Below are positions 3,543-32,000 of a stretch of 32,000 nucleotides of DNA, piece after piece; positions within the stretch are counted from its first letter, which is position 1, and the number at the start of each line of letters is the position of its first letter. The DNA lies in assembly GCA_016196885.1 (NCBI GenBank), contig JACPWU010000020.1, positions 30,001 through 62,000 on the forward strand, given 5' to 3'. A program made the position numbers and the translations under genes. The notes under the pieces are model-generated. The model did not search any database, was not told the origin of the DNA, and worked only from the letters and a program-made list of their open reading frames with translations. This DNA comes from Chlamydiota bacterium (GTDB lineage Bacteria; Auribacterota; JACPWU01).

Positions 3543-4236
3543 CGTTAAACCTGTCGTGAGTGGTGAGTGGTGAGTCGTGAGTTAAAAACCCTAAATCCTT
3601 CTCCAAAGGGCAAAGTGAACACAAGGGCTTTTTTCGGCAAAAATCTTTACCGACCTTTACAATGAGTGCATGAAATTCATTGTAGATTTTCAAGCTTTTT
3701 GGCAATGCTTTTTCAAAAATGTTTTTTACATTTTCATAGGATTCATCTTCACGAATAAATCCGTGTCGAGAAAAAATTCTCTTCGTATAGGCATCCACCA
3801 CAAAAGTTTTTTTATCCAGGGCATAGAGCAAAATACTGTCCGCGGTCTCAGGTCCCACTCCATATACCCCTAACAAATCCTTTCTCAAAGAAGCGAGATT
3901 TATTTTTTTGAGCCGAGCGGCCTTTCCTTGCGCCCTTGTCCAAAACCAATCTATCAAGACCTTCAATCTTTTGGCCTTTAAATTAAAATAGCCCGAGGGC
4001 CGGATCCATTGAGACAATTTCTTTAAAGAAAGGGCTCTCAATTTTTTCAGGGATAACACACCCGATTTTTTTAAATTTTGAATCGCTTTTTCAACATTGC
4101 TCCAAGCTGTATTTTGAGTGAGCACCGCCCCCACCATCACCTCCAAGGGGGTTTCCCCTGGCCACCAAGATTGGGGACCTAAACTCTGATAAAGAGTCTT
4201 ATAAATTCTAAACAATTCTTTTTCATTACGAATCAT
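3520..4236 (-). CDS. endonuclease III-related HhH-GPD DNA glycosylase-like protein
   Basis: The helix-hairpin-helix/GPD region is [20 protein letters not shown] followed by [10 protein letters not shown]. The C-terminal Cys cluster reads [16 protein letters not shown]. The last ~18 aa ([21 protein letters not shown]) are read from a heptamer repeat and the carB start region, overlapping carB by 23 nt. Confidence 0.75.
3553..3585. repeat. heptamer word array with GTTAA terminus (E1)
   Basis: GTCGTGA GTGGTGA GTGGTGA GTCGTGA GTTAA. It lies 10 nt upstream of the carB ATG and is translated as the tail of the nth-like ORF. Confidence 0.8.
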
Positions 4237-4255
4237 TGTAATACAAACCCCTTTT

Positions 4256-4346
4256 TAGTTAGAAGTTGGAGGTTAGATGGAAAAACAAAACCCTTGTCCT
4301 ATTTTTAAGCTTTAATCTTCGATCTTCCAACTTCCAACTTCCATCC
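4256..4346. repeat. palindromic heptamer-word element (E2)
   Basis: The left arm is GTTAGAA GTTGGAG GTTAGAT (4258-4278) and the right arm is CTTCCAA CTTCCAA CTTCCAT (4324-4344). GAAGTTGGA and TCCAACTTC are complementary. It fills the carA/nth-like spacer. Confidence 0.8.
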
Positions 4347-5414
4347 CATCATCATTTCCCTAAACCTATCAAACAAATACAAAGAATCATGAGGTCCGGG
4401 GCTGGCCTCTGGATGATATTGCACCGAAAAAATGGGAAATTTTTTATGCCTCATACCCTCTACCGTTTGATCGTTTAAATTCACATGTGTCAATTCTACT
4501 TCCTCTGGATTCAAAGAACTCATGTCCACAGCAAAACCATGATTTTGTGAGGTGATCGCCACTTTTCGAGTGACCAAATCCATGACAGGCTGATTTGCCC
4601 CCCGATGACCAAATTTCAATTTATAGGTTTTCCCTCCATAGGCAAGTCCCAAAATTTGATGCCCCAGACAAATTCCAAAAATGGGTAATTTTCCTAAAAG
4701 TTTTTGAACGGTGTGAATGGCATAAGTCACAGCCGCTGGATCACCTGGCCCATTCGATAAAAAGAGGCCGTCCGGGCGATGCTTCATGATTTCATCGGGG
4801 CTCGCCGCTCCTGGAAGCACAGTCACTTGACACCCCGAGGATTCCAGGCAGCGCAAAATATTGGTTTTAATGCCATAATCCATGGCAACGACTTTGAAAG
4901 ACCCTTGCTGATTATAGGTATAAGGTTTCGAGGTCGTGACCCCCTTGACCAAATCTTGTCCAATCATTTTGGGAGCTTGTTTTACTTTTTGAAGCAAACT
5001 TTCTCGATCAAAATCCTTTGTCGAAAGAATCCCCATCATGGCCCCTCGAAGCCGCAAAATACGAGTGATCGCCCTCGTATCCACACCTTCAATGCCAATG
5101 ATATGATTCTTCTTCAGATAATCTTCCAAAGAACCCGTCGCTCGCCAGTTACTCATCACTTGGCTTAATTCTCTCACAATGAAACCTTCTACCTGAGGCA
5201 CCTTTGATTCCAAATCCTCTTCATTGACCCCGTAATTTCCTATCAAAGGATAGGTCATGGTGACCATCTGGCCCTTATAGGAAGGATCCGTCAAAATCTC
5301 TTGATAGCCGGTCATGCTGGTATTAAAAACAACCTCCGCAATCTTTTCTCCTTCGGTACCAAAAGATTTTCCCTCGAAGAAATGACTGTCTTCTAAAACT
5401 AAAATGGATTTCAT
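4305..5414 (-). CDS. carA: carbamoyl-phosphate synthase small (glutaminase) subunit
   Basis: 369 aa with a CPSase small-chain N-domain plus a class-I amidotransferase (GICLGHQ, ...QYHPEA). The C-terminal [13 protein letters not shown] is encoded by the repeat arm CTTCCAA x3. Confidence 0.95.
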
Positions 5415-5429
5415 AATTGCGTTACTATA

Positions 5430-7651: not shown

Positions 7652-7653
7652 GG

Positions 7654-8196: not shown

Positions 8197-8218
8197 TTAA
8201 TCAACCCCATTCGGGCAT

Positions 8219-8318
8219 AAAAAAAGCCCGCTCTTTGAAGAAAGATCAGGCTTCGATAAACGAATAAAAGACCTCATTTTTTCTCCCTTTCCAGCCTCAC
8301 AGGACTGGGATTAAAAGG
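8219..8318 (-). promoter_or_regulatory. PyrR-binding attenuator leader (binding loop plus terminator hairpin and U-run)
   Basis: The minus strand reads CUUUUAAUCCCAGUCCUGUGAGGCUGGAAAGGGAG (8284-8318). This resembles the known PyrR binding-loop motif (..AGUCCAGAGAGGCU..AAGG). It is followed by the hairpin AAGCC..UCUUUCUUCAAAGA..GGCUU and a U7 run ending at 8219, 22 nt upstream of the pyrR ATG. Confidence 0.65.
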
Positions 8319-8364
8319 CAACCTTATTCATCGTATCACCTTGAAATATTTTGTCAATCTTTTT

Positions 8365-8393: not shown

Positions 8394-8430
8394 CCCTTTA
8401 CGATAATATCATCATTTGATATCATCAGGT

Positions 8431-8712
8431 ATGATCGAAAGCTTTTCTTGCCCAGAAACTGAAAAAGTGTTTAAGGCTATTGGATCAAGAAAATTGCCCT
8501 GGGACATTCAAAGAACTGCAAGAAGGAAACTCCTCTACATGGATGAAGCTAACGATTTGAGGGATTTGATGGCCCCTCCAGCCAATCGACTTGAAGCTCT
8601 GAAAGGAAATCGAGCAGGGGAGTACAGTATTCGCATCAACGAGCAGTGGCACATCTGTTTCAAATGGGAAAGAGGCAAGGCAAAAGATGTTGAGATCACA
8701 GACTATCATTGA
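8431..8712 (+). CDS. higB: HigB-like (RelE/ParE superfamily) type II toxin
   Basis: MIESFSCPETEKVF...RKLLYMDEANDLRDLMAPPANRLEALKGNRAGEYSIRINEQWHICFKWERGKAKDVEITDYH has the characteristic HigB 'plasmid maintenance system killer' layout ending in ..I.DYH. I start at ATG 8431; the track start at 8416 is a TTG. Confidence 0.85.
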   Translation: MIESFSCPETEKVFKAIGSRKLPWDIQRTARRKLLYMDEANDLRDLMAPPANRLEALKGNRAGEYSIRINEQWHICFKWERGKAKDVEITDYH

Positions 8713-8732
8713 AAATATAAGGACTGAATCAC

Positions 8733-9032
8733 ATGAAAAACAAACTTTCTCCTATCCATCCTGGTGAGACATTGTTGGAAGACTTCATAAAACCTTATGG
8801 CTTAAGTCAATACCGTGTTGCAAAAGACATAGGCGTGACACCCCTGAGAATCAGTCAGATTATTCATGGAAGAAGAGCTGTTACAGCCGATACCGCCATA
8901 CGTTTAGGGCGTTATTTTGGAACGAGCGCTACCGTCTGGCTACGCCTGCAAGCTCGTTTTGACATTGAAATAGCTGAAAAAAAATTATCCCATCGCATTG
9001 ATAGGGAGGTCAAAGTACTAAAAGCAGCATAA
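8733..9032 (+). CDS. higA: HigA-like antitoxin, XRE-family HTH
   Basis: 99 aa. The N-terminus PIHPGETLLEDFIKPYGLSQYRVAKDIGVTPLRISQIIHGRRAVTADTAIRLGRYFGTSATVWLRLQ is a typical HigA HTH. The gene begins 20 nt after higB. Confidence 0.88.
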   Translation: MKNKLSPIHPGETLLEDFIKPYGLSQYRVAKDIGVTPLRISQIIHGRRAVTADTAIRLGRYFGTSATVWLRLQARFDIEIAEKKLSHRIDREVKVLKAA

Positions 9033-9068: not shown

Positions 9069-9091
9069 AGCGAGTCGTGTCTCGTTTTTTT
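9069..9091 (+). terminator. candidate intrinsic terminator of higBA
   Basis: Short hairpin AGCGAG-TCGTGT-CTCGTT followed by a T7 run. The stem is short, so this is weak. Confidence 0.4.
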
Positions 9092-9113
9092 CCTCCCTCA
9101 AACTCCTCTCCTA

Positions 9114-10055
9114 TCACACCACACTAGAATCTTTCAACCTCTCAACGGCTTTCTTCATATCCTCCGGCATGGGTGCTGTAAAAAGCATCCATTCGTTTTT
9201 AACGGGGTGGGTGATACCGATCTGGGCTGCGTGCAGCATTTGTCTAGAAATCCCTATTTTTTCTGAAAGTTCTTTTCCTCTCTTACCATATCCTTCATCC
9301 CCCAAAACGGGATGGCCTAAATGAGCCATGTGGACACGAATTTGATGGGTTCGCCCTGTTTTTAAAAACACCTTCACCAAGGTCGCCTCATTGAATTTTT
9401 CGACCACTTCAAAAGTGGTGTGTGCAGATTTTCCAGTAGGGATAACCGCCATTTTCTTCCGGTCCACAGGGTGGCGGCCAATGGCCAATTCTAATTCTCC
9501 CTTCAAACTTCTCATTTTTCCCCAAACCAAAGCTAAGTATTGCTTCATCACCTTTCTTTTTTCAAATTGGACTCCGACCTTTCTCAATCCTTCCTCTCTT
9601 TTGGCAACGATGAGACACCCAGAGGTATCTTTATCGAGACGATGTACAATCCCAGGTCTTAAGGGATCATCTGTTGTGGCCAACTGCTGACAATGATGCA
9701 AAATCGCATTCACCAAGGTATGCTCACGATGCCCCGGAGCCGGATGAACCACAAGACCCGGCTGCTTGTTAATCACTAAAATATCTTCATCTTCATAGAG
9801 CACCTCCAGAGGAATATCTTCTGGCAACAATTCTATTTTTTTTGGAACAGGGATACAAACTTCAACCCCTTGCCCTGGCTTCACTAAAAAATGGGCTTTG
9901 CGTAATTTTCCATCAATGAGAACATGGCCTTCTTTGATCAAGGATTGAATTTGTGTTCTGGACATCTTAGGAAATTTTTCAACCAGATAAAGATCGAGAC
10001 GCTTGTCGAAATCCGCAGGATCTACCCGAACCGTCTTAACGATTTCTTCTGACAT
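9114..10055 (-). CDS. rluD: RluA-family 23S rRNA pseudouridine synthase (RluD-like) with S4 domain
   Basis: 313 aa with an N-terminal S4-like region (RLDLYL..., VLIDGK) and the catalytic motif HRLDKDTSG. Confidence 0.9.
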   Translation of the reverse strand: MSEEIVKTVRVDPADFDKRLDLYLVEKFPKMSRTQIQSLIKEGHVLIDGKLRKAHFLVKPGQGVEVCIPVPKKIELLPEDIPLEVLYEDEDILVINKQPGLVVHPAPGHREHTLVNAILHHCQQLATTDDPLRPGIVHRLDKDTSGCLIVAKREEGLRKVGVQFEKRKVMKQYLALVWGKMRSLKGELELAIGRHPVDRKKMAVIPTGKSAHTTFEVVEKFNEATLVKVFLKTGRTHQIRVHMAHLGHPVLGDEGYGKRGKELSEKIGISRQMLHAAQIGITHPVKNEWMLFTAPMPEDMKKAVERLKDSSVV

Positions 10056-10806: not shown

Positions 10807-10822
10807 GAGACCACCTAAATAA

Positions 10823-10965
10823 TAACCCCTCCACCTCCCCTTATGGTTTGCGCCCTGCCGGGCTCCAACCACTTCCTCGTCCACCCGCTGCGACGGGTAC
10901 CCGGACTCGGTCGAAAGGGGAGAGTTTCTCCCCTCTTTAGTTCAAAGAGGGGTTGGGGGAGTTAA
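10823..10965. repeat. GC-rich palindromic element with ~80-nt GC-rich cargo (G2)
   Basis: Termini are TAACCCCTCCACCTCCCC... and ...GAGGGGTTGGGGGAGTTAA, with an internal hairpin CCCCTCTTTAGTTCAAAGAGGGG. It fills the lspA-lgt spacer. Confidence 0.8.
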
Positions 10966-11455
10966 TCTTTTTTTCCTTCAAAAAATATATCCCCAAAAGT
11001 ACCGCCCCTCCTGTAATCGCACTGTCTGCAACATTGAATGTCGGCCACTCGTGGGAGCCGATAAACACCTGAAAGAAATCTATCACAAAATGATACGTGA
11101 TGCGATCCCACAAATTTCCAAGGGCGCCTCCCAAAATCATCCCCAATCCCATCTTCCACAAAATTCCTTTTTTTCCCCATCTAAAATACAAAAATAAAAT
11201 AAGAAGAAGCGAAAAAAGAGTTGTCACTACAAGAAAAAGTCTAGCATTTTTAAAGAGACCAAAAGCGGTTCCCGTATTGTGAACCAAGGCAAGATAAAAA
11301 TAGGGAGGAATCATCTCAATGCGATGTCCTACATTCATCAGCCATTGAGAAAGGAAATGCTTCGTAAATTGATCTAGCAAGAAAATAAAAAGGGTTAAGC
11401 CGAAAAAGAGAACGTGACTTACGCCTTCTTTTTCTTTTCCTGTTCGGATTGGCAT
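10937..11455 (-). CDS. lspA: lipoprotein signal peptidase II
   Basis: Motifs LDQFTK, NTGTAFG and FNVADSAI are present. The start is ambiguous (ATG 11455 or GTG 11464, both overlapping the upstream dksA-like stop). The last 9 aa, INSPNPSLN, are encoded by the repeat terminus. Confidence 0.88.
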   Translation of the reverse strand: MPIRTGKEKEGVSHVLFFGLTLFIFLLDQFTKHFLSQWLMNVGHRIEMIPPYFYLALVHNTGTAFGLFKNARLFLVVTTLFSLLLILFLYFRWGKKGILWKMGLGMILGGALGNLWDRITYHFVIDFFQVFIGSHEWPTFNVADSAITGGAVLLGIYFLKEKKINSPNPSLN

Positions 11456-14977: not shown

Positions 14978-14988
14978 AGAAAATTTTC

Positions 14989-15263
14989 TTAACCCCTCCA
15001 ACTCCCCTTAAATAAGGGGAGAGTAAAAAACTCGCTCTTTCGAGTTCCCCTCTTATTTAATTTTAATGATCCTTCGAGATCATCATGTGCGATGAAAGTT
15101 CTCCCCATTATGTTTTTTGTAGTCGCCCGATTCATCGGGCAATCCATGCAAGGGGCACACGGCAGCCCCATAAATGGGGCGACTACAAGGGTGATTTTCA
15201 TCCCCCTTTGTGCCGACCTCAGTCGGCATGAATGTTTCATAGTAAGAGGGGCTAGGGGAGTTA
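14989..15263. repeat. GC-rich palindromic element (G3), interrupted by a nested REPIN-like element
   Basis: TTAACCCCTCCAACTCCCCTTAAATAAGGGGAG...TCCCCTCTTATTTAA | insert | AGTAAGAGGGGCTAGGGGAGTTA. The uninterrupted equivalent, TCCCCTCTTATTTAAGAGGGGCTAGGGGGGTTA, is seen at 28855-28887. Confidence 0.85.
15059..15240 (+). repeat. REPIN-like element, copy A
   Basis: The core GTAGTC-GCCCGATTCATCGGGC-[23 nt]-A-GCCCCATAAATGGGGC-GACTAC spans 15119-15186. Its flanks are conserved with copy B (about 90% identity over the 5' 60 nt). Confidence 0.85.
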
Positions 15264-15277
15264 GTTTTTTTAATTCC

Positions 15278-17288: not shown

Positions 17289-18704
17289 TTAAAACTCCAT
17301 CCTGTTCATCATCAACCCCGTCATCAACTTCGGATAAAAATCTGTGGACTTCTGGGGCATCCTCTCCTGGCCAAAGGCAACATCCTTCACCTGAAGAGGT
17401 TGAGTCGGATTTAAAAAGAAGGCCAGCTGGGACCCCCCTCGATGAACAGCCTCCAAAGCCTCACCTATTTCCCGACAGTAAGAAACGCACGTTTCATTAC
17501 GCACGGCCTCTGGATCAATCCCCAAAACTTTTTCCAAAATTAAATGGTGTAGAACCACAACGTCCAATCCACGCCAGCCCTGAGAATGCTTCTCCTTAAA
17601 GAAATCTTGGGGCACAGAACTTTTAGGATAATGCAAAAGAACAAATTCATCAGAACCATAGTAAAGACCCAAGGTATGCCCCTCTGGGTCTTCCCCTTTC
17701 ATTTTCTCTCGAATGAACTCACTGCGATGATCTTTAGGAAGCTTCAAACGCTTCGGATGAAAATCCTTTTTCAGCAATTCCTGAAGATTCATCATTTTCT
17801 CATCTGAAACATTTCTCACCAAACGATGCGTCGGCAAAATCACCAATCCCTCATCATATAAATTCACAAAGGCCATCATGGCATAATCAAAGGGCTGACT
17901 TCCATCAATACCCCCTCTTAGATAAGAGGGGTCTGGGGAGTTAATTCCATCAATACCCCCTCTTAGATAAGAGGGGTCTGGGGAGTTAATTCCTTTTACC
18001 CCCTGTATCCTCTTGGCCATCTCCTCACGAAAATTGAGTGCTGTCTCATAACGATGATGGCCATCGGCAATCAATAATTTCTTAGATTTCATCAGGGCCT
18101 GCAATTGAGGCAATACCTCTTTGTCATGAATGGCCCACAAGCGATGATCCACTTTATAATCTTTGTCCGTAAAATTAAACATGGCCTGAGTTGGCCGCTT
18201 AGAATTGAGAAGTTCCATCACCTCCTTCTTACGGTCCTCGTAGAGCATAAAAATCAATCCAAAATGAGTTTGAGTAGCCCTCAAATGATTGAGCCGATCC
18301 GCCTTGGGCTTGGAAAGCGTCTCTTCATGGGGATAAACCTCTCCCTCCCCATATTTCTGAAGGAGCCCCAAGGCAATAAAAGCCTGCCTCTTTTTTCTTT
18401 GCCCAAAAACCGTAAACTCCTGATCGTAGCAATAAATCGCGCTCTCTTGATTTTGAACAAAAACACCCGACTTCACCCATTCTTGAAGAAGCTTTCCTTG
18501 AGTCTCATAAGTCGCGGCCACTTTAGAGGCATGAGAAGAGGGCACCTCTTTTAAAATAAGGCGAACGGCATTGCATGGGTCCCGCGTCAGATAGGATTGA
18601 TAAAGCTTGGCATCAATTTTGTCATAAGGTTGAGTAATGACATTTTCTATCTTTATTTTTTTAGAATTGTAATACGTGCCTTTAAAAGGTTTAATCACTG
18701 CCAT
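17289..18704 (-). CDS. DUF1015-family protein carrying an in-frame repeat insertion
   Basis: 471 aa with the conserved LLIADGHHRYETAL and ILPTHRL motifs of DUF1015. Residues GINSPDPSYLRGGID x2 are encoded by a 2 x 45 bp tandem copy of the GC-rich repeat. Confidence 0.75.
   Translation of the reverse strand: MAVIKPFKGTYYNSKKIKIENVITQPYDKIDAKLYQSYLTRDPCNAVRLILKEVPSSHASKVAATYETQGKLLQEWVKSGVFVQNQESAIYCYDQEFTVFGQRKKRQAFIALGLLQKYGEGEVYPHEETLSKPKADRLNHLRATQTHFGLIFMLYEDRKKEVMELLNSKRPTQAMFNFTDKDYKVDHRLWAIHDKEVLPQLQALMKSKKLLIADGHHRYETALNFREEMAKRIQGVKGINSPDPSYLRGGIDGINSPDPSYLRGGIDGSQPFDYAMMAFVNLYDEGLVILPTHRLVRNVSDEKMMNLQELLKKDFHPKRLKLPKDHRSEFIREKMKGEDPEGHTLGLYYGSDEFVLLHYPKSSVPQDFFKEKHSQGWRGLDVVVLHHLILEKVLGIDPEAVRNETCVSYCREIGEALEAVHRGGSQLAFFLNPTQPLQVKDVAFGQERMPQKSTDFYPKLMTGLMMNRMEF
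17901..17990. repeat. perfect 2 x 45 bp tandem of a GC-rich half-element (G4), in-frame inside the DUF1015 CDS
   Basis: TCCATCAATACCCCCTCTTAGATAAGAGGGGTCTGGGGAGTTAAT occurs at 17901-17945 and identically at 17946-17990. Confidence 0.95.
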
Positions 18705-18735
18705 AGCATGTTTCCTTTATTCAAATAAAAACCAT

Positions 18736-18880
18736 TTAACTCCCCCAACCCCTCTTTCCCGTGGAGACTATAAAAGCTTGAAATAAGAGGGGAGTAGACT
18801 CTCCCCTTATTTCAAGTTCTTACAAGATTTTATAGTCCCCGCGGGATAGTCCCTGTGGGAAAGGGGAGTTGGAGGGGTTA
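18736..18880. repeat. GC-rich palindromic element, long nested palindrome (G5)
   Basis: Termini TTAACTCCCCCAACCCCTCTTTCCC and GGGAAAGGGGAGTTGGAGGGGTTA. Inner inverted repeats GGAGACTATAAAA/TTTTATAGTCCCC and CTTGAAATAAGAGGGGA/CTCCCCTTATTTCAAG surround the centre GTAGACT. Confidence 0.9.
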
Positions 18881-19394
18881 TTTTATTCTCCTTCAATCTG
18901 TTCCTCACCCGATTAAAAAACTCTAACGCCCTCTCATCCTTATAGTCCTGATACGTCCAGGGCCAGGGATGAAAAACTTTATCTTTAAAGTAAAGCGTTG
19001 ATTGAGCGTAAATCCCCCGCCCTAAATAAATTCGATACGTTGCAGGCTTGGTGGTTGCTAAAACAATTTTGTCTAGATCAATATAGCCCGGATCAATGTT
19101 CCAAATTCTGTTCTGGCCTGAGGCCTCTTTTAGTTCCATCTCATTGGAAGCCCATTTTAACTCTCGGATATCTTCCGGAGAAATCAATTTCTCGAAGGCA
19201 TAAAAAGAGCGAATTAAATTTGCCCCCAGTTCAGACTCATAATATTTTGTAAAATCAAAGGGGAAAGGCTCCATTTGATCTTCAAAAGGGCCCCACGCCT
19301 GCTCTAAAAGACCCTCCACCTCTTTTAATCGGGATGGCGCTACAATCACGGCCGCAAAAAGCTTGACTGGCTCAGGAAATCGAGGGGCTCCCAT
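18807..19394 (-). CDS. DUF4416-family protein with repeat-encoded C-terminal tail
   Basis: FDFTKYYESELG...NIDPGYIDLDKIVLATTK...YRIYLGRGIYAQSTL...WTYQDY matches my memory of DUF4416. The last 24 aa (ITPPTPLSHRDYPAGTIKSCKNLK) are read from the repeat at 18736-18880. Confidence 0.6.
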   Translation of the reverse strand: MGAPRFPEPVKLFAAVIVAPSRLKEVEGLLEQAWGPFEDQMEPFPFDFTKYYESELGANLIRSFYAFEKLISPEDIRELKWASNEMELKEASGQNRIWNIDPGYIDLDKIVLATTKPATYRIYLGRGIYAQSTLYFKDKVFHPWPWTYQDYKDERALEFFNRVRNRLKENKITPPTPLSHRDYPAGTIKSCKNLK

Positions 19395-20592
19395 CTTTCA
19401 TCTCTTTCTGGACACTCTTCACAATCTCTTTTTGTTTCAAAAGGCTGTCATAAGAAAATAAAACGATGCCACCTGAAGAAATTTGCAACGTCTCCTTAAA
19501 CTCCTTTTCAAAATCCTTTGGATTCTTTTCAAAAAGATAGGCCCCCAATCCAATCCAAACATTTTTTTTCTGTGAAACCCCAAGCGCCATTTTAGAAAGC
19601 ATCTGGGCCAAATGTAAGTCTAAAGTATAATTCATACTCACCACAAAATCCACTTTCTCTTCCATCGCCCATCGAGACCAATCCTGGAACGAAGAAAAAT
19701 AGCTCCTCTCGGGCCAAGGAAGTACTGCACAAGAAAGTTCTAGATACGAATTCTTTGTTCGAAGCATTTTTCTTGTCTGATCTATCAAAGAAGTAATTTG
19801 ATTGCGCCGCCACTCATCCCACAACATATGATTTTCAACGGTTCTCTCCATATGAAAAGGATTTAGACCATAAGCCTTTTGAAATCTCTCCACACTTCTT
19901 TCTCCATACCCAAATTCAAGCCCTCTTGTGAACGCATAATAAGAACCCGGCAAAAAGGGGGAAGCAAAAGGATATCGAACAAAGTCAAAATGGATCCCGT
20001 CCACGCCAGGATAGTTCTGAATCAACTCACTGACGACACTTAAGAGATAGGTCTGAACACGATCATCGCCCGGATCCAGCCAGTAGCCGTCCTCTCCATA
20101 AGAGTACCAGCCTGCCTCAGGCGCTGGAACTTGAAAGTTGTGGTAATCTAGCATGGATCTGGCCTTTTGATCGCGTGTGATAATGCCTCGACCCAGTTTC
20201 TTGACAATCGGCACATTTAAATCTTTTCCAATCCAATAAACATTAACCCAGGCATGAATTTTTAAATTCCTTCGATGGGCCTCTTCAATGGCAAAAGCCA
20301 GAGGATCCATTTTTTCTTTTTTATAAATTTCTTGGAATGGGCTCTCATCCGCTATTTGAGAGCGATACCAAGAATGATTCCTGCGATAAACCTGTAAAAA
20401 AATATCTTTTGCCCCTAAATCTTTTGCAAAATCCAACATCTGAGTGATCTTTCCACGACTGGAAAGTGTCTGATTATCAGACTCACAAGGTACCCAAAGA
20501 CCTAGAGGAGGTTTAGCTTTTTCAGCATTTAAGAAGGTAGAGAAACAATAAAAAAGGAGAAAGAAACTAAATAAGGAAGAATATTTTTTCAT
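19372..20592 (-). CDS. glycoside-hydrolase-like family 10 (GHL10/DUF187) secreted protein
   Basis: 406 aa with an N-terminal signal peptide (MKKYSSLFSFFLLFYCFSTFLNA). TIM-barrel-like motifs (IHAWVNVY, GIHFDFVRYP) are as in YngK-type GHL10 proteins. Confidence 0.6.
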   Translation of the reverse strand: MKKYSSLFSFFLLFYCFSTFLNAEKAKPPLGLWVPCESDNQTLSSRGKITQMLDFAKDLGAKDIFLQVYRRNHSWYRSQIADESPFQEIYKKEKMDPLAFAIEEAHRRNLKIHAWVNVYWIGKDLNVPIVKKLGRGIITRDQKARSMLDYHNFQVPAPEAGWYSYGEDGYWLDPGDDRVQTYLLSVVSELIQNYPGVDGIHFDFVRYPFASPFLPGSYYAFTRGLEFGYGERSVERFQKAYGLNPFHMERTVENHMLWDEWRRNQITSLIDQTRKMLRTKNSYLELSCAVLPWPERSYFSSFQDWSRWAMEEKVDFVVSMNYTLDLHLAQMLSKMALGVSQKKNVWIGLGAYLFEKNPKDFEKEFKETLQISSGGIVLFSYDSLLKQKEIVKSVQKEMKDGSPSIS

Positions 20593-20594
20593 TT

Positions 20595-21872
20595 TTAATT
20601 TTTCATTTTTAACTGCGTCAACCCAATATCCTTACGATAATGCATTTTCTCAAATTGAATTTTTTCTGCAGCTCGATACGCATTGGATCTTGCTTCAGAA
20701 AAATTTTTTCCTAAAGCGCTAATACACAGAACACGACCTCCGCTCGTTAGATAACGCCCATCCATTTTTTGAGTCCCGGCATGAAAAACAAAAACATTTT
20801 TTTCCTTAGCCAGACCGTTCAACCCCTGAATCTCATATCCGTTTTGATAAGTTCCTGGATAACCTCCCGAAACCATCACCACACCGAGCGCTACCTCATC
20901 TGAAATTTCAACTTTTATAGGAGAGAGTTTTCCTTCAGTACAGGCCAGTAAAATAGGTAAAAGATCCCCTTTCAAACGAGGAAGAATGACTTCCGTCTCA
21001 GGGTCCCCGAAGCGAACGTTGAACTCAAGCACTTGGGGTCCTTGACGGGTGAGCATCAACCCCGCATAAAGAACCCCTTGATAAGAAACACCTTCCTTGG
21101 CCATTCCCGTAAGAAGCGGATCAAAAACTTCGCGCATGATTTTTTCTTTCAGTCGAGAATCCGCTTCCGGAACAGGACTGAAAGCCCCCATTCCCCCAGT
21201 GTTAGGACCCTCGTCGTGATCGAAAACCCTCTTGTGATCCCGCGCCTCAGGAAGAGGGGCAAAGGTTTTTCCATCCGAAAAAACCAAAAAAGACATTTCT
21301 CTGCCGACCAGACATTTTTCAATCAGCACCTCGTGACCGGCATTTCCAAAAATCTTTTTCACCATCACCTCTTGAGTAAAGGAATGGGCCTCTTCAAAAT
21401 TTTCTGCAACCAAAACACCTTTTCCCGAGGCCAGACCATCGGCTTTAATCACAAGAGGGTATTGTACTTTTTTTAAATAATTCTGAGCTGCTTCAAATTC
21501 ACAGAAAACCTCATAAGGGGCTGTAGGAATCCCATACTTCTTCATCATTTTTTTAGCAAAAATCTTACTTCCCTCTAGACGGGCCGCAGATTGACAGGGA
21601 CCAAAAATTTTAAGCCCTTTTTTCTCAAAGGTATCCACGATTCCTAAGGTCAGAGGTAGTTCAGGCCCTACAACAGTAAGGTCTATTTTTTGACTAGAGG
21701 CGAAATCCAAAAGGCGGGAAATATCCTGAACAGGAATATCCACATTTTCAGCAAGATCCGAAATGCCTCCATTCCCTGGAGCGCAATAAATTTTCTTCAC
21801 CCATGGGCTTTGAGAAATTTTCCATACGAGCGCGTGCTCCCTCCCCCCACCGCCAATCACCAAAACTTTCAT
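20595..21872 (-). CDS. purD: phosphoribosylamine--glycine ligase
   Basis: 425 aa beginning MKVLVIGGGGREHAL, with an ATP-grasp core and typical PurD layout. Confidence 0.96.
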   Translation of the reverse strand: MKVLVIGGGGREHALVWKISQSPWVKKIYCAPGNGGISDLAENVDIPVQDISRLLDFASSQKIDLTVVGPELPLTLGIVDTFEKKGLKIFGPCQSAARLEGSKIFAKKMMKKYGIPTAPYEVFCEFEAAQNYLKKVQYPLVIKADGLASGKGVLVAENFEEAHSFTQEVMVKKIFGNAGHEVLIEKCLVGREMSFLVFSDGKTFAPLPEARDHKRVFDHDEGPNTGGMGAFSPVPEADSRLKEKIMREVFDPLLTGMAKEGVSYQGVLYAGLMLTRQGPQVLEFNVRFGDPETEVILPRLKGDLLPILLACTEGKLSPIKVEISDEVALGVVMVSGGYPGTYQNGYEIQGLNGLAKEKNVFVFHAGTQKMDGRYLTSGGRVLCISALGKNFSEARSNAYRAAEKIQFEKMHYRKDIGLTQLKMKN

Positions 21873-24818: not shown

Positions 24819-24842
24819 CCTTTAAAAGAAATTTCCAATGAT

Positions 24843-25072
24843 CAATAACAAATGTCAAATAAATCTCCAATTCTCCAATGTCCAATTGGATATTGAGTCA
24901 TGGGTCATTCATTTGCTATGAAAGTGAAGCTCATTCTGTAGTCGCCCCATTTATGGGGCTGCCCGATGAATCGGGCGACTACAAAAAAAGCATGATGGGG
25001 AGAACTTTCATCGCACACGATGATCTCGAAAGATCATTAAAATTGATATTTGAAATTGGAAATTTGTCATTG
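24843..25072. repeat. AT-rich word-array palindrome (E3) wrapping REPIN-like copy B
   Basis: The left arm is CTCCAATT CTCCAATG TCCAATTG (24865-24888). The right arm is ATTGATA TTTGAAA TTGGAAA TTTGTCA (25042-25069). The outer ends CAATAACAAAT and ATTTGTCATTG are complementary. It fills the purF-purM spacer. Confidence 0.7.
24900..25044 (-). repeat. REPIN-like element, copy B (inverted relative to copy A)
   Basis: The reverse complement aligns with 15059-15240. The core GTAGTCGCCCCATTTATGGGGCTGCCCGATGAATCGGGCGACTAC spans 24938-24982. It lacks the two 23-25 nt segments present in copy A. Confidence 0.85.
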
Positions 25073-25075
25073 TCT

Positions 25076-26467
25076 CTATAAAACAATTTTCTTTCTCTTC
25101 TTTTCCATGATTAATTTATGAATACCTTCTTCTACGGGAACGGGATATTCTTTGGTGTAGCAAGCAGTGCAAAATCCAATGTCAAGACCAGACATGGCCC
25201 TCAGCATGCCCTCTTTACTTAAATAACCCAGGCTGTCCGCCTCTAAATAAGATTTGATTTCATCCAAGCTGTGAGAAGAAGCAATCAATTCGGCTGTAGA
25301 AGGAAAATCAATCCCATAATAACAGGGGCTTACATGCGGGGGGCAGCTGATTCTCACATGCACTTCCCTTGCCCCTGCGTCCCTTAAAATACGTACGCGA
25401 GAACGACTCGTCGTCCCTCTCACAATAGAGTCGTCCACGACCACCACACGTTTGCCTTCGATCACTTCCCGAATCGGATTTAATTTAATCGTAACGCCCA
25501 AGTCTCGAATGAATTGACTGGGCTGCAAGAAAGTTCTCCCCACATAATGGTTGCGGATAAATCCCATTTCCAAAGGAATGCCTGACGCTTCTGAATATCC
25601 CATGGCCGCAGAATTTCCAGAATCCGGGACCGGAATCACAACATCGGCTTGGGCAGGATGCTCTTGAGCCAATTCCACACCCAATTTCTTGCGAATAGAA
25701 TGAACACTCTTGCCCATCATCCAACTATCAGGACGCGCAAAATAAATATTTTCAAAAATGCAAAAAGAAGTTGGGGTCTCGGTAAAAGGCTTGATCGAGC
25801 GAATGAGATTTTTGCCAATAAAAACAATTTCTCCCGGCTCTACATCCCGAATAAAATTTGCCCCGATTAAATCCAACGCACAAGTTTCAGAAGCCAAGAC
25901 ATAAGCCCCCTCTTTTTCGCCGATACACAAAGGCCTAAACCCGTTTGGATCCCGGACTCCAACAATTTCATCCTCCCACAAAATGACAAGTGTATAAGCG
26001 CCTCTCACCCTTTTAAGACTGTCAACCAATGCCTCTTCTCGAGATTGGAGAGAAGACCGTGCAATCAAGTGAAGAAAAATCTCGCTGTCTACCGTGGTCT
26101 GGAAAATAGAACCCTGTTTTTCTAATTCTTCCCGCAATTCGCGAGCATTCACCAAATTTCCATTGTGCCCAATCGCCAAATCTCCCTTTGAACAACTCAC
26201 CAAAATAGGCTGGGCATTTTCAATCATGCTGGAGCCTGTGGTCGAATAACGTACATGCCCAATGGCAATAGAGCCTGTCAAATCCTTTAAGACCTTCTCG
26301 TGAAAAACCTCTCCCACCAAGCCCATGCCCTTATGCACCTTCAGGCTCTTCCCATCGCTCGTCACAATCCCAGCAGACTCCTGACCCCGATGCTGAAGCG
26401 CATAGAGTCCCAAGTAGGTCAAATGGGACGCATTCTCATTTCCATAAATCCCGAAGACACCGCACAT
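25076..26467 (-). CDS. purF: amidophosphoribosyltransferase
   Basis: The N-terminus MCGVFGIYG carries the Ntn-amidotransferase catalytic Cys. The PRTase motif VVVVDDSIVRGTT is also present. Confidence 0.96.
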   Translation of the reverse strand: MCGVFGIYGNENASHLTYLGLYALQHRGQESAGIVTSDGKSLKVHKGMGLVGEVFHEKVLKDLTGSIAIGHVRYSTTGSSMIENAQPILVSCSKGDLAIGHNGNLVNARELREELEKQGSIFQTTVDSEIFLHLIARSSLQSREEALVDSLKRVRGAYTLVILWEDEIVGVRDPNGFRPLCIGEKEGAYVLASETCALDLIGANFIRDVEPGEIVFIGKNLIRSIKPFTETPTSFCIFENIYFARPDSWMMGKSVHSIRKKLGVELAQEHPAQADVVIPVPDSGNSAAMGYSEASGIPLEMGFIRNHYVGRTFLQPSQFIRDLGVTIKLNPIREVIEGKRVVVVDDSIVRGTTSRSRVRILRDAGAREVHVRISCPPHVSPCYYGIDFPSTAELIASSHSLDEIKSYLEADSLGYLSKEGMLRAMSGLDIGFCTACYTKEYPVPVEEGIHKLIMEKKRKKIVL

Positions 26468-26487
26468 AGATTAGGATCCTTGTGTAA

Positions 26488-26575
26488 ATTAATTGAAAAT
26501 TGATAATTGAAAATAAATGAAATAATTAATCATTCCTTCATTATCAATTGTCAATTATGAATTATCAATTTTAAA
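26488..26575. repeat. AT-rich heptamer-word palindrome (E4)
   Basis: The left arm is AATTGAA AATTGAT AATTGAA AATAAAT (26491-26518). The right arm is TTATCAA TTGTCAA TTATGAA TTATCAA TTTTAAA (26541-26575). AAAATTGATAATT and AATTATCAATTTT form a perfect 13-bp pairing. It fills the purL-purF spacer. Confidence 0.8.
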
Positions 26576-26581
26576 AAAACG

Positions 26582-28813: not shown

Positions 28814-28814
28814 C

Positions 28815-28887
28815 TTAACCCCCCTAGCCCCCCTTAAAATAAGGGGGGAACTACTCCCCTCTTATTTAAGAGGGGCTAGGGGGGTTA
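28815..28887. repeat. GC-rich palindromic element, minimal 73-bp form (G6)
   Basis: TTAACCCCCCTAGCCCCCCTTAAAATAAGGGGGGAACTACTCCCCTCTTATTTAAGAGGGGCTAGGGGGGTTA. The outer arms are perfect complements and there are two inner hairpins. It fills the purQ-purL spacer to within 1 nt of the purL ATG. Confidence 0.92.
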
Positions 28888-29577
28888 TTTCATTATTGCT
28901 TTTATAATGGATTCAAAAATTTTTCTTCCATCTTCTGATCCTAAAATTTGCTCACTCGCCCTTTCGGGATGAGGCATCATGCCCAGCACATTACCCTCTT
29001 CATTGATAATGCCGGCAATATTTTCAAGTGAACCATTGGGATTTGAATCTCGCGTGACCTCGCCTTGTTCATCACAATAACGAAAAACAATTTGCCCCTG
29101 CGCATTCATTTTCTTAAGCACATCTGGCTCGACAAAATAATTTCCTTCTCCATGGGCCACGGGAATTTTTAAAACCTCAGTTTTTTGATATTGTTCGGTG
29201 AATCGCGTCTTCACATTTTCGGGGCGCAAATAAACATATTTACATACAAACTTGAGGGAGGAATTTCTCATCATGGCCCCTGGCAGAAGCCCGGCTTCGA
29301 GCAAAATCTGAAAACCATTGCAAATGCCCAAAACGAGGCCCCCTTTTTTGGCAAATGGCTGAACAGAATTCATCACAGGAGAAAACCGTGCAATCGCGCC
29401 CGTCCGTAAATAATCTCCATAGGAAAATCCCCCAGGCAAAATCACACAATCAAAGTGAGAGATATCCGATTCCTGATGCCAGACATACTCCACCGGCTGC
29501 TTAAGCACATTTTTAATCACATGAAAGCAGTCCGCATCACAATTGGAGCCTGGAAAAACCACCACAGCGAATTTCAT
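28885..29577 (-). CDS. purQ: phosphoribosylformylglycinamidine synthase glutaminase subunit PurQ
   Basis: [14 protein letters not shown]..., GICNGFQ and MMPHPER form the class-I GATase triad. I start at ATG 29577, 4 nt after the purS stop. The track's extra 22 aa overlap purS. Confidence 0.94.
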
Positions 29578-29581
29578 TCTA

Positions 29582-29830: not shown

Positions 29831-29868
29831 ATTTTTCTCCATACAGATAGCTTAGAAAAGAGAAAAGC

Positions 29869-29897: not shown

Positions 29898-29898
29898 C

Positions 29899-29911
29899 GG
29901 GGAAGGGTTAA
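29899..29911. repeat. solo GC-rich element terminus (G7)
   Basis: GGGGAAGGGTTAA resembles the right termini GGGGGAGTTAA and GGAGGGGTTA. No partner arm is present. It is adjacent to the IS. Confidence 0.35.
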
Positions 29912-29945
29912 TTTGCTAAAAGTGATGCTGTATTTACCTAAAACC

Positions 29946-31304
29946 TGCGTGAAAAATAGCATTTTTCACGCAAGGGGAACAAGTTTTTTGATTTTGTTGA
30001 TGGCGAACACAAAGACATTTTTATTGGGACTGTTCTTTGGAAATTTGAGAGTGGGAACATTATTTGTGTGTACCAGTTCCCCTGGCACCATAAAAAGCTG
30101 ATGCCGTAATTTGGGAAGGGTTAGAGATTGCCAATGATCTGGCAAGCAAAGTCGTTTGAACCAAGTGATCAGGTTATGTGCTAGGAGAGATAGTTCGGCA
30201 TAAAAGGCATTGGCAACAAAATTCTTTGTGGGGGCACTGCCAAACGGGAAGTCATTTTTGAGGATGCGGATGATTCTTTCTAGATTAGCTCTATCTTTGT
30301 AGAAAGTGAAAATTCCATAGGGAGTTAAAGGTAGGTTTGTTACGATCACTGAATAGGCGTATTTGTCGAGGGTGAATAAGGTGAGTTCTTGATCTGGTTG
30401 CGTCTCGATTTTTCTACGAAGTACGACAAAACGATATTTCTTTTCCCATGAATGGGGCTGATAGAAGAACTCAGCCGTTGAGAATTTTGCGTTAACTTTA
30501 TGGTACCTGAGACCTGACAGACGTCTTTTAATGGGGGCCGTCATTCTGGCCACGATGGTGAAACCAATGCCCGCTGTATCGAGTTCTTTGACAAATTCTT
30601 TCTCGTAGAACCCAGAATCGGCGCGGGTTCTGAGATGATGAGGGTAAGGCAAGAGCTTAATCGTATCACGAAGAAGAGGAATAACTCCCTCAGCTGTGTG
30701 GGCATTGCCGTAACGGAGAAATCCTCCGAGAGCGTCTTTGAGGTGGGCTTCGGTAGCGACAAGGGGATGATAGGATTTTTTGCCAATGTGTCCGGGGTTG
30801 TAACCCTTAACGACGCCTTCCTGATGACCGTAGAGGGTATTGGCGGTGGAATCGAAATCGATGCAGTAGCTGGGAAGAAATGACGGCTGAGTCATAAAAT
30901 ATTTTCGAAGGCTGTTGTGAATTTCACAAAGAGAGGGAGCAAGATCAGGCGCAGATCGAAGCAAAAATCTTCGGAGCGTCGTAGGATTTGGAAAACTTGG
31001 AATACCTGTCAGATATTGGAAAACGCCATTTGTTTTGAGAAGCGCTGAGACCTCGATCTTTTCAAGACCCAGGATCATAGGGTAAATGAGAGCCAGAATC
31101 ATTTCTGTTGTGCTGTACTTGTTGTTCTTTTGGATATAGGCGAATCGACGACTGAGAAAAGTTCGCAGTTGAAGACTTTGAAAAAATCGGTGGAGAAGAT
31201 AAATGCCGCCAAAGTGGGAAAATTTTCCCGCTGTAAAGGCCATGCGAATATTGCTGGCTCCACGACGACGCATTTCACGAACCTAACTAAAAGTTAGGTT
31301 CGTG
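29946..31304 (-). mobile_element. IS1380-like insertion sequence (ends approximate)
   Basis: A single transposase ORF is bracketed by perfect hairpins at 29946-29972 (12-bp stem, covers the stop codon) and 31276-31304 (13-bp stem, 2 nt upstream of the ATG). I could not identify convincing terminal inverted repeats or target duplications. Confidence 0.5.
29966..31273 (-). CDS. IS1380-family (IS4-superfamily DDE) transposase
   Basis: 435 aa. IDFDSTANTLYGHQEGVVKGYNPGHIGKKSYHPL, ..TRADSGFY.. and YKDRANLERIIRILKND (Y-x2-R-x3-E-x6-K) fit the DDE layout I associate with IS1380-type transposases. Confidence 0.75.
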   Translation of the reverse strand: MRRRGASNIRMAFTAGKFSHFGGIYLLHRFFQSLQLRTFLSRRFAYIQKNNKYSTTEMILALIYPMILGLEKIEVSALLKTNGVFQYLTGIPSFPNPTTLRRFLLRSAPDLAPSLCEIHNSLRKYFMTQPSFLPSYCIDFDSTANTLYGHQEGVVKGYNPGHIGKKSYHPLVATEAHLKDALGGFLRYGNAHTAEGVIPLLRDTIKLLPYPHHLRTRADSGFYEKEFVKELDTAGIGFTIVARMTAPIKRRLSGLRYHKVNAKFSTAEFFYQPHSWEKKYRFVVLRRKIETQPDQELTLFTLDKYAYSVIVTNLPLTPYGIFTFYKDRANLERIIRILKNDFPFGSAPTKNFVANAFYAELSLLAHNLITWFKRLCLPDHWQSLTLPKLRHQLFMVPGELVHTNNVPTLKFPKNSPNKNVFVFAINKIKKLVPLA

Positions 31305-31323
31305 TCAAAAGATCTTTTTTATT

Positions 31324-32000
31324 CTAAGCCTTATTTAATGGGAGCTTCAGTGATATTGTGGGTTTGGCTTGCGCAGGATTTAAGTAATATAAGCTCTTTG
31401 TCATGAGCTCTATGGTCTCTTCTTTCACTAATCTTTTGCTCAATTCCTCTATCACCTTGATTCGCTCTTCTTCGACTGATTTTAAATCTATGGCTTTTTC
31501 AATGTCTTTCATCTGGAGCATGAGATGGATGTTAGGGCAGCTGGAGGAGGAAAGAATATTAGATGTTGAAAGTTGGATGTTGGAAGATGACAAGGAGTTT
31601 TTATCTTTTTCTTTCAACTTTAAACTTTTAACTTTTAACTGTTTTATATATTCCCCCAATTCTATCTCCCCACTCGTATACCTTTCATTCTCTTTTAGAA
31701 TCTCTTTCACCTCTTTTGAGTAGATTCCCTCTTTTAATCCTTCAATTCGTTTCTCTATCTCTTGAAGAATAGGCTCCGCCTTCTCTTTTAACTCCTGCCC
31801 TCTGTCAAATTGAACCAAATGCGTGAAGTATTCCTTCATGTTTTCTATCCCTTGAAGAGGTAGGGGCTTGTCTTTGACGATCGATAAATATTCCGCGCCG
31901 CTGATTTTTCCCTCTTTCATCAGATACTCTGCGAGCATTTTGCGGATCGCAGGATCTGGAAAGGCTGTGAATTGGCTGGTGTCTACTACTCCCCCTGCGG
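31324..32000 (-). CDS. hypothetical coiled-coil protein, 5'-partial (frame open to window edge)
   Basis: The ORF frame stays open upstream of the annotated Met to position 32000 (..AGGVVDTSQFTAFPDPAIRKMLAEY..). It is K/E-rich and helical. It contains a low-complexity segment encoded by heptamer word arrays. I recognise no family. Confidence 0.5.
   Translation of the reverse strand, partial: AGGVVDTSQFTAFPDPAIRKMLAEYLMKEGKISGAEYLSIVKDKPLPLQGIENMKEYFTHLVQFDRGQELKEKAEPILQEIEKRIEGLKEGIYSKEVKEILKENERYTSGEIELGEYIKQLKVKSLKLKEKDKNSLSSSNIQLSTSNILSSSSCPNIHLMLQMKDIEKAIDLKSVEEERIKVIEELSKRLVKEETIELMTKSLYYLNPAQAKPTISLKLPLNKA
31565..31638. repeat. convergent heptamer word arrays inside a CDS (E5)
   Basis: GTTGAAA GTTGGAT GTTGGAA (31565-31585) faces CTTTCAA CTTTAAA CTTTTAA CTTTTAA (31611-31638). 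It uses the same GTTGGAA word as element E2. Confidence 0.75.

Follow-up and report, generated by a model that had tools for sequence, protein, structure and literature searches.

What occupies the spacers between the genes of this locus, and how did it get there? The window, that is, the whole stretch of 32,000 nucleotides (nt) at positions 30,001 to 62,000 of contig JACPWU010000020.1 (assembly GCA_016196885.1), carries pyrimidine (pyr) and purine (pur) operons. An initial annotation had proposed that nearly every intra-operon spacer is filled by a single design, two facing arms of tandem 7- to 8-nt words, with compositions ranging from A/T-rich to G/C-rich. About 8/10 of the co-directional spacers of at least 50 nt do hold an element, and the high density and inverted layout are both real; the elements, however, are of three kinds. 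Judged from their sequences, the operon junctions are most likely colonized by three unrelated palindromic repeat classes: heptamer hairpins (class H), a triplex-type family (class A) and elements resembling repetitive extragenic palindromes (REPs; class B). A single design spanning all base compositions has to be abandoned, the GC-rich loci forming a separate mirror-repeat sequence family, with a REP doublet nested in two loci.

As initially noticed for co-directional genes, the elements lie on or adjoin stop codons, and four genes (carA, lspA, a DUF4416 gene and an HhH-GPD gene) read into one. Each of the three classes belongs to a kind already described in other bacteria. The novelty lies in the host lineage, in the density, in the large number of words, in the colonization of tightly coupled operon junctions and in a statistic of arm polarity; compared to the known cases, the density of elements in the gene gaps of this genome is unusual. 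Considered as MITEs (transposable elements of the miniature, inverted-repeat sort), class B displays a conserved interior and inverted ends, class A conserved ends and a variable interior, and class H no conserved sequence; for the elements in the window, no target-site duplication was recognized and no parent insertion sequence (IS) was found. The sole transposase in the window belongs to an IS1380-family element, which we rejected as a parent as its ends are unrelated to the arrays.

Table 1. Positions of the repeat elements and other features, counted from the first letter of the window (z, folding score against shuffled sequence; TRF, Tandem Repeats Finder; ORF, open reading frame; HTH, helix-turn-helix).
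Feature	Position	Strand	Detail
S1, direct array GTCGTGA GTGGTGA GTGGTGA GTCGTGA	3553..3585	.	TRF period 7, 3.9 copies
H1, inverted heptamer hairpin	4257..4343	.	inverted repeats and period-7 array; dG −31, z=−4.7
H1 left arm	4257-4277		GTTAGAA GTTGGAG GTTAGAT
H1 right arm	4304-4343		~5.5 words, TTCCAAC type
S2, direct array TTTTTCA TTTTTAA x2	20585..20612	.	TRF periods 14 and 7; no hairpin
H2, composite hairpin, purF-purM spacer	24829..25068	.	inverted repeats, period-7 array 25043-25064; z=−8.8
H2 outer left arm	24829-24861		CAAAT-type words
H2 outer right arm	25041-25068		ATTGATA TTTGAAA TTGGAAA TTTGTCA
H2 inner palindrome	24856-24915
H3, inverted heptamer hairpin, fills purL-purF spacer	26490..26575	.	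two period-7 arrays, z=−3.1; AATTGAA AATTGAT AATTGAA facing ATTATCA ATTGTCA ATTATGA ATTATCA, arms 88-94% complementary
H4, inverted heptamer hairpin, in frame within giant-protein gene	31559..31640	.	inverted repeat, period-7 arrays, z=−2.7; GTTGAAA GTTGGAT GTTGGAA facing CTTTCAA CTTTAAA CTTTTAA x2
A, single unit CCCCGCTTA ttt AAGGGGGG aac GGGGGATTA, carB-pyrK spacer	205..252	+	direct repeat, arm scan, fold
A, doublet, lspA-lgt spacer, overlaps lspA stop	10821..10967	.	arms 10823(−), 10945(+); z=−4.2
A, doublet, upstream of yggT, downstream of proC	14988..15266	.	arms 14990(−), 15244(+); z=−10.6
A, 45-nt unit, tandem-duplicated, in frame within DUF1015 gene	17900..17989	+	TRF period 45, 100% match
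A, doublet, long inner hairpin	18733..18884	.	arms 18737(−), 18861(+); z=−9.1
A, doublet, fills purQ-purL spacer	28814..28889	.	32-nt inverted repeat; dG −58, z=−8.1
B copy 1, nested in H2, MITE-like, ~125 nt	24917..25045	+	doublet GTAGTCGCCCCATTTATGGGGC / GCCCGATGAATCGGGCGACTAC; three-copy alignment
B copy 2, opposite orientation to copy 1	15068..15242	−	between CCCCTCTTA (15058) and TAAGAGGGG (15242) of an A unit
HhH-GPD gene for an endonuclease III-like DNA glycosylase, placed between carA and carB	3520-4236	−
PyrR site RF00515, pyrR leader	8217-8322
HigB-like toxin / HTH antitoxin pair	8416-9032	+	opposite strand, between pyrR leader and rluD
46-aa ORF in 300-nt purH-purD gap	21912-22052	−	DUF6364 match, 33 bits
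IS1380-family transposase	29966-31273	−	window end, adjoins giant-protein gene
Giant-protein gene, 5′ part	31324-31938	−	stops after ~360 aa

Heptamer arrays and hairpins

A period scan of the window returned seven period-7 arrays versus 0.23 expected from 200 dinucleotide shuffles, none of which held more than two, with periods 5, 6 and 8–12 at background; TRF assigned period 7 in 10 of its 20 rows. The unit had been given as 7–8 nt, and only period 7 is enriched, the number of period-8 arrays being zero. The next 5.7 kb of the source genome, covered by a second NCBI assembly (GCA_016178005.1, here L084), hold four such arrays versus 0.07 expected, indicating that arrays continue beyond the window in this genome, and 21 kb of a relative (L085) hold 13 versus 0.16, no other period being enriched. 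Over these three samples (59 kb of two genomes), five of the 24 arrays lie inside coding sequence (CDS), by more than 30 nt, versus 20.9 expected (p=3e-13). In line with the initial proposal, word arrays are thus absent from shuffled sequence beyond its low background and are depleted in CDS interiors.

We then compared the folding of each locus with shuffled sequence, CDS control windows giving z=−0.15±1.09. The four hairpins (folded windows: H1, 4255-4345; H2, 24826-25068; H3, 26488-26577; H4, 31560-31642) fold as inverted pairs and all beat their shuffles. Two facing arms had been claimed for each locus; S1 is a direct array alone, with no facing arm and no hairpin (z=+1.1), and the degenerate arms suggested at 9089-9113 and 22132-22168 show neither periodicity nor excess folding (z=−0.7 and +0.1, respectively). 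Terminator and promoter scans gave no signal at the H hairpins, which display no GC-rich stem followed directly by a U-tract; their U-rich 3′ arm bears a resemblance to terminators only. The terminator scan totals were 24 versus 19.5 expected and 29 versus 18.0 expected, the excess coming mainly from the inner hairpins of class A.

The arrays supply parts of the genes that they separate. S1, which ends 11 nt before the carB ATG (3542), supplies in translation the C-terminal tail of the HhH-GPD product, and the right arm of H1 encodes the carA stop and the final 13 codons; at the H1 site, the junction is ≤10 nt in two relatives, L086 and L088. S2 is a 14-nt tandem duplication across the purD stop and the overlapping start of the next gene (sense strand, TTAAAAATGAAAAA twice), and may be a snapshot of array birth at a coupled junction. 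At purL-purF, in three relatives, the ATG of a PurF propeptide (~19 aa, N-terminal) overlaps the purL stop (L082 10001-10060, L001 9938-10030, L002 4401-4470), whereas in the window (26467-26581) the propeptide is gone and a 114-nt spacer filled by H3 is followed by a new Shine-Dalgarno sequence before ATG-Cys. Across the two array-carrying genomes, repeats have taken the place of stop and start codons, and even of the PurF propeptide.

Some arrays lie inside genes. The locus at 31565-31638, initially placed in a spacer, is H4, and lies within a coding gene. This gene is real, with 1099 homologues at E≤0.001, mostly proteins of 1,000–6,000 aa. H4 forms a 19-aa in-frame insert, EKDKNSLSSSNIQLSTSNI, absent in homologues of ≤59% identity and present in one at 70%. 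A representative homologue, P0241, ends at the same residue as the giant protein of the window, and the IS1380-family insertion has therefore probably truncated the giant-protein gene. Outside the window, a second peptide encoded by an array, LSSNLQHLTSNSLSSSN, lies in the N-terminal part of P0241. In L084, pyrK contains (AAAACTC)4 in frame. Overall, these cases show that arrays survive where insertions are tolerated: junction spacers, last codons and protein surface loops with the reading frame kept. Note that annotation is affected, as ORFs are extended or interrupted by translated repeats (carA, lspA, DUF4416, DUF1015, HhH-GPD).

Contigs of an independent assembly (Logan) end at 25022, within B copy 1, and at 28845, within the purQ-purL A doublet, as might be expected if the repeats were artefacts of assembling a metagenome-assembled genome (MAG) from short reads. 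We consider this virtually out of the question. Over this region, the Logan assembly matches the window at 100% identity, H3 being identical base for base, and L084 is 99.987% identical over 15.4 kb, a span that covers H1, S1 and two A elements, with neither of its two single-nucleotide polymorphisms (SNPs) in arrays or repeats; moreover, the same classes occur in other species and many metagenomes. Contig breaks within A and B copies are the effect that multi-copy repeats have on assemblies, and the break within a B copy suggests that further B copies exist in the genome.

Gain at operon junctions, arm polarity and possible origins

A comparison of PurF proteins places an uncultured MAG and a Candidatus Auribacterota MAG closest (84% aa identity), Omnitrophota coming next at ~60%; on this sequence evidence, the source of the window is an Auribacterota-related MAG. 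We compared it with L085 (CarA 77% identical), L086, L087, L088, L082, L002 and L001. Besides L085, ~100 kb of these relatives contain no period-7 array in L086, L087, L088, L082 and L002, and one in L001. The ~58 kb from L086 to L088 include the pyr operon with its HhH-GPD gene, with junctions that overlap or are ≤12 nt at most sites, and purQ and purL overlap in L002 and L082. Since the sister genomes have overlapping or minimal junctions at orthologous sites, the kind of empty site that the initial annotation suggested seeking, the elements are lineage-specific gains. The clade thus offers a clean natural comparison, sister pyr and pur operons keeping overlapping genes and two genomes having opened almost every junction by means of heptamer hairpins, repeats of the triplex type and REP-like elements.

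Between the two genomes that carry arrays, related words are kept in the pyrF-pyrE and coaC-coaB spacers (L084 versus L085), with differences in copy number and arrangement; the arms of one hairpin also differ in copy number and words. In L085, a module (ATCAAAA)n-ATGACA stands at four consecutive pyr junctions, with an inverted partner at three. The ATGA of the module is the pyrC stop and is probably the carA start, the annotated carA start being ATA. In the same genome, pyrC, carA and the HhH-GPD gene end in a shared array-encoded tail of the ..KIKNQKSK type (9953-9983, 11073-11107 and 12010-12049).

A combined account, in which class H consists of palindromic microsatellites grown by slippage and transcribed as 3′ hairpins while A and B are separate classes, has in our estimate about an even chance of being right. 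A short seed at the 3′ end of a gene would grow by 7-nt steps through replication slippage, and the array would be copied onto the other arm of the nascent hairpin by intrastrand template switching, giving a palindrome with word-array arms of unequal length. In the operon mRNA, such palindromes would form long AU-rich hairpins, whose 5′ arm is rich in purine/A and whose 3′ arm is rich in pyrimidine/U. As 3′-end structures, these hairpins might cause pausing or partial termination, be processed by RNases, or shield the upstream cistron against 3′ exonucleases; they would also uncouple neighboring cistrons once linked in translation. Heptamers are the over-represented class of long simple sequence repeats in bacteria, for which polymerase slippage linked to the polymerase footprint has been proposed (PMC4692102).

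Several observations weigh against this account. No slippage event was seen directly in the two assemblies of one population (2 SNPs per 15.4 kb, none in arrays). Slippage alone does not explain the step of 7, nor the same word and ATGACA end at consecutive junctions of one operon (L085 holds four forward and two to three reverse copies of the module within 4 kb), nor the strong arm polarity described below. At the RNA level, sense folds are more stable than antisense folds in 13 of 22 cases, the H hairpins gave no match to the intrinsic-terminator consensus in the terminator scan, and any function must be dispensable as sister genomes run the same operons without the elements. An RNA-level role of the H hairpins is only weakly supported.

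To see how widely the layout occurs, we collected metagenome contigs matching exactly a 19-mer of L085, ATCAAAAATCAAAATGACA (at least 120 contigs; 645 kb among the matches listed, the scope of all metagenome counts below). Orthologues on these contigs are ≤40% identical to the window proteins and GC ranges from 28% to 56%, which indicates that the contigs do not come from close relatives. They contain 366 period-7 arrays versus 7–56 for other periods, with 101 distinct words of mean A+T 0.80. Around the 19-mer, A-tracts phased by 7 nt are kept and the remaining positions vary, which argues for a shared design rather than one mobile sequence; a single conserved 50-nt element behind the matches was rejected on the same ground. 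The layout is thus common in environmental bacteria.

These data bear on whether the H hairpins are non-autonomous mobile elements of MITE or REPIN type, with heptamer arrays as terminal inverted repeats and a transposase encoded elsewhere. Such elements would account for the empty sites in relatives, for one module at four consecutive L085 junctions, for an identical 19-mer in at least 120 contigs from organisms that are not close relatives, for the copies within genes, and for the co-occurrence of the hairpins with the A and B families, which look mobile. We nevertheless consider this unlikely, given that there is no conserved full-length sequence, the 19-mer flanks sharing A-tract phasing only, that 366 arrays use 101 words with arm lengths unequal and variable, and that neither a recognizable target-site duplication nor related IS1380 ends were seen.

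The polarity of the arms is the feature that a purely neutral process would not predict. Of 92 inverted heptamer hairpins in the metagenome set, 75 begin with a purine-rich arm and 14 with a pyrimidine-rich one (p=3e-11), and in the Auribacterota set the purine arm comes first by 6 to 0. As a palindrome is identical on both strands, the polarity cannot come from the direction of replication or transcription; it suggests selection, or else some constraint, for instance that the 3′ arm be rich in U or that the first arm be translatable. The flanking genes are co-directional at 47 metagenome loci, convergent at 7 and divergent at 2, the pattern of 3′-end elements such as REPs. Where AAAATCA arrays lie in ORFs, 18 are on the same strand and 6 on the opposite strand; this bias is consistent with (AAAATCA)n being free of stops in every frame and its complement closing all three.

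Selection could mean that the hairpins are regulatory RNA, either factor-independent bidirectional terminators or attenuators, or RNase III or stability sites, slippage providing raw material only. The polarity would put a U-rich arm 3′ on either transcript, by 75 to 14 overall and by 42 to 0 for the AAAATCA type, and divergent gene pairs are depleted; the coaC-coaB hairpin is kept in two species with 5–7 G.U pairs on the sense strand only, and REPs and Correia elements are known to act likewise (PMC3733652). Against these points stand the absence of the hairpins at the same junctions in sister genomes, AU-rich stems with no GC core and no terminator-scan signal, a sense/antisense asymmetry that is not significant overall (13/22), and the location of some hairpins within coding sequence, so that we rate this as improbable, on a par with mobile elements. 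A broader proposal, which we find rather more doubtful, is that the AT-rich hairpins are a widespread unnamed class in uncultivated bacteria, in which A-tract arrays phased by 7 nt face U-tract arrays and the polarity is fixed, purine arm first, and are not passive microsatellites; they would then be bidirectional factor-independent 3′-end or termination elements, or the product of a dedicated activity working in 7-nt steps.

Heptamer arrays have precedents. For the AT-rich loci, the short tandemly repeated repetitive (STRR) heptamers of cyanobacteria, named by the initial annotation, are the right analogue: a 7-nt head-to-tail unit, several word families per genome, and a mostly intergenic location near gene ends, as here. 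The word TTTTGAA/TTCAAAA of Nostoc PCC 7120, where heptamer arrays include (TTTTGAA)n and GGGGA(C/T)T, is found here too; the words here differ from the named STRR units apart from the TTGAAAA type, and the host is cyanobacterial there and Auribacterota-related here. Unlike in STRRs, the inverted hairpin pair is dominant here, inside pyr and pur operons, often supplying stop codons. Work of Elhai and colleagues from 2008 reportedly found small dispersed repeats nested within cyanobacterial heptamer arrays. Heptanucleotide arrays have been recognized ever since STRRs were first described. Few inverted array pairs are reported for Nostoc (PMC4692102).

The inverted layout had been thought undescribed; there are two precedents for it, in Xanthomonas (PMC4692102) and in Geobacter metallireducens (PMC2700814). 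In Xanthomonas, arrays of the heptamer GGGAATC are 89–93% intergenic, lie ~28 nt from the upstream ORF, mostly between co-directional neighbors, and form 70–75 convergent pairs per genome, potential stem-loops close to where the upstream ORF ends (Rehm et al, 2015, PMC4692102). H1–H4 are likewise close convergent arrays on opposite strands, at 3′ ends of upstream genes with co-directional neighbors. They differ in that Xanthomonas uses one G-rich, G-quadruplex-capable word, whereas many mostly AT-rich words (GGAAGTT, AATTGAW, TTGRAAT, etc.) are used here; in density, ~1 array per 27 kb there and 1 per 2–5 kb here; and in the several in-frame coding copies found here, which are not stressed there. 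In G. metallireducens, three to five tandem words of 7–9 nt (GTTGCTYN, TCTCCGTS[Y], MTYCTGA, TWGTTGAY) form opposite-strand pairs at variable distance, in the sections of the report that treat these sites (Aklujkar et al, 2009, PMC2700814). Some of these words resemble the (G/A)TTG words first noticed here. According to those sections, some heptamer families lie within genes, as here, and IS elements insert beside the sites; the units differ in being partly 8–9 nt, GC-richer and of one conserved word per class, and those sections describe no operon-junction bias. Beggiatoaceae TAACTGA arrays are direct repeats upstream of start codons.

The same sections of the Geobacter report read the paired word sites as "global regulator binding sites", which raises the question of whether the arrays here are protein-binding heptads, such as operators, centromere-like or nucleoid sites. 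The unit is exactly 7, in direct and inverted arrangements; TTTTGAT/ATCAAAA is identical to the heptad of the V. cholerae ctxAB promoter; and ribbon-helix-helix (RHH) antitoxin genes are present in these operons. The sites of omega-type RHH repressors are precedents for such heptads. We nevertheless hold this to be very improbable: the dozens of unrelated words (101 among the matches listed) would require binding specificities by the dozen, the sites lie at 3′ ends and within operons rather than at promoters, some arrays are translated, and no cognate protein was identified.

Two further occurrences lie outside the compared set. Candidatus Firestonebacteria MAGs carry heptamer arrays (ACTAAAT/ATTTAGT, AATTAGT) beside purF, inverted and direct (L053, 12634-12755; L057, L058 and L059, near 9900 and 12730), and the heptamer design thus occurs in that phylum too. 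In a Polyangiaceae MAG (L071, 12742-12972), inverted GGGGTTA arrays ~200 nt apart enclose 27-nt tandem units GGGGTTAGTCGAACCAGGGGAGAGA, with dG −150.

The mirror-repeat and REP-like families

The five GC-rich loci of the initial annotation (10823, 14989, 17901, 18736 and 28815) prove genuine: their structure is strong (z=−2.4 to −10.6) and TAAC...GTTA termini bound them. They are not tandem word arrays. An arm scan found 11 arms of the form AAGRGGGR-NNN-GRGGGRGTTA in the window and two in L082, and none in ~1.2 Mb of the other compared loci. The two G-blocks of an arm are mirror images, with a mirror identity of 0.62–0.78 versus a direct identity of 0.25–0.38, and we therefore rejected tandem 8-nt words as their basis. 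The mirror rule is obeyed in 10 of the 11 arms, the position of the single A co-varying between blocks (AAGAGGGG/GGGGAGTT, AAGGGGAG/GAGGGGTT, AAGGGGGG/GGGGGGTT). Since these loci share sequence, they are a family and not merely a shared design. The 35-nt unit, CCCCTCTTAGATAAGAGGGGTCTGGGGAGTTAA, reads C-stem, loop, G-stem, 3 nt, mirror G-stem; a pattern search found six complete units, of which five lie in the window and the sixth in L082. Units are mostly paired as inverted doublets that end in TAAC...GTTA and vary in their interior.

Antiparallel purine-motif triplexes are built from G.G-C, A.A-T and T.A-T triads. Under these rules, 8/8 class A triads are valid, and class A would thus be a design for an intrastrand purine-motif triplex, as predicted from the pairing rules. 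The same layout (C-stem, loop, G-stem, 3-nt loop, second G-stem) is that of the E. coli BoxC/TMECO intrastrand triplex motif (Holder et al, 2015, PMC4666352), which is multi-copy and patchy among strains. The sequences differ (CCCCTCTTA / TAAGAGGGG / GGGGAGTTA for class A versus CCCTCNCCC / GGGNGAGGG / GGGNGAGGG for TMECO), which makes class A a different family of the same design; here, in addition, most units are paired as inverted doublets bounded by TAAC...GTTA, one copy lies in frame within a gene, and the triplex is a prediction.

Like the heptamer arrays, class A copies enter genes. The duplicated unit in the DUF1015 gene (Pfam DUF1015) encodes GINSPDPSYLRGGID twice, an insert of ~34 aa that the L001 orthologue lacks in a protein alignment. 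The doublet at 18733 supplies the stop and the last ~29 codons of the DUF4416 gene, whose Pfam match ends at residue 166 of 195, and in the purQ-purL doublet the TAAC end includes the stop codon of purQ, while 5 nt separate the G-rich end from the purL ATG. The DUF1015 unit and H4 are comparable to Rickettsia palindromic elements, palindromic repeats inserted in frame into protein genes and translated; those elements differ in sequence and host and are not built of tandem heptamers. A complete A doublet also occurs in L082, at a different site, and is 94% identical to a window copy, while coding DNA is ~75% identical.

Class B is a conserved element of ~125–175 nt, with a core doublet of GTAG-headed, GC-rich 22-nt palindromes in inverted orientation (GTAGTCGCCCGATTCATCGGGC and GTAGTCGCCCCATTTATGGGGC). 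Two copies are present in the 32 kb and one in L085 beside a heptamer hairpin, ~85–90% identical across the two species. Class B inserts into the loops of H and A elements: copy 1 in H2 and copy 2 in the loop of the right-hand unit of the A doublet at 14988. Its sequence is in keeping with GTAG-tagged REPs and REPINs (Di Nocera et al, 2013, PMC3733652; Bertels & Rainey, 2011, PMC3116915), with which it shares the GTAG-headed palindrome, of 20–40 nt in that group, opposite-orientation units foldable together, and a location downstream of coding regions between co-directional genes. It differs in that the doublet lies within a longer conserved element with an outer stem and a 3′ hairpin tail, seen in three copies; no gene for a REP-associated tyrosine transposase (RAYT) is among the genes of the 32-kb window.

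The nesting of B elements inside or beside arrays in two of the three copies also bears on another possible origin of the arrays, namely as footprints of repeated insertion and excision by an element duplicating 7 bp of its target. This would explain the strict 7-nt step and the locus-specific words of loose consensus, which differ between loci yet resemble each other. No element with 7-bp target duplications was seen among those described here, however, and the B copies have no flanking 7-nt duplication. To our knowledge, bacterial transposons do not leave such footprint arrays. We regard this origin as scarcely credible, and the slippage account as the better reading of the arrays.

Other palindromic families were observed in the relatives. 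L001 (4810-4953, 7707-7754, 12470-12591), almost array-free and with its copies in spacers, and L086 (17535-17565) carry different REPIN-like doublets, GGATCCCCGA...TCGGGGATGACAG. L082 (5965-6140, 6885-7000) and L088 (8968-9110) carry long GC-rich MITE-like hairpins of a family common to both, e.g. ATCCCACCACCTGCTG...CAGCAGGTGGTGGGAT.

Gene content and other observations

Nearly every gene of the window is on the minus strand. The pyrimidine genes, mostly on that strand, are pyrR-pyrB-pyrC-carA-(HhH-GPD)-carB, and the purine genes purD-purH-purM-purF-purL-purQ-purS; the window also contains rluD-lgt-lspA-dksA-ileS, yggT/proC/yggS, the DUF1015 and DUF4416 genes, and a GHL10 hydrolase gene. An Rfam scan of the window at gathering thresholds matched the PyrR site alone, no known RNA family covering the repeat elements, and a scan for tRNA and tmRNA in the window found none. 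The ORF in the purH-purD gap is weakly CopG/RHH antitoxin-like and, from its sequence, looks like an orphan antitoxin; in L082, an RHH and PIN pair lies between purS and purQ. An HhH-GPD gene occupies the carA-carB position in every clade genome compared, the window, L085, L086 and L088 among them, and is an unusual member of a pyr operon.

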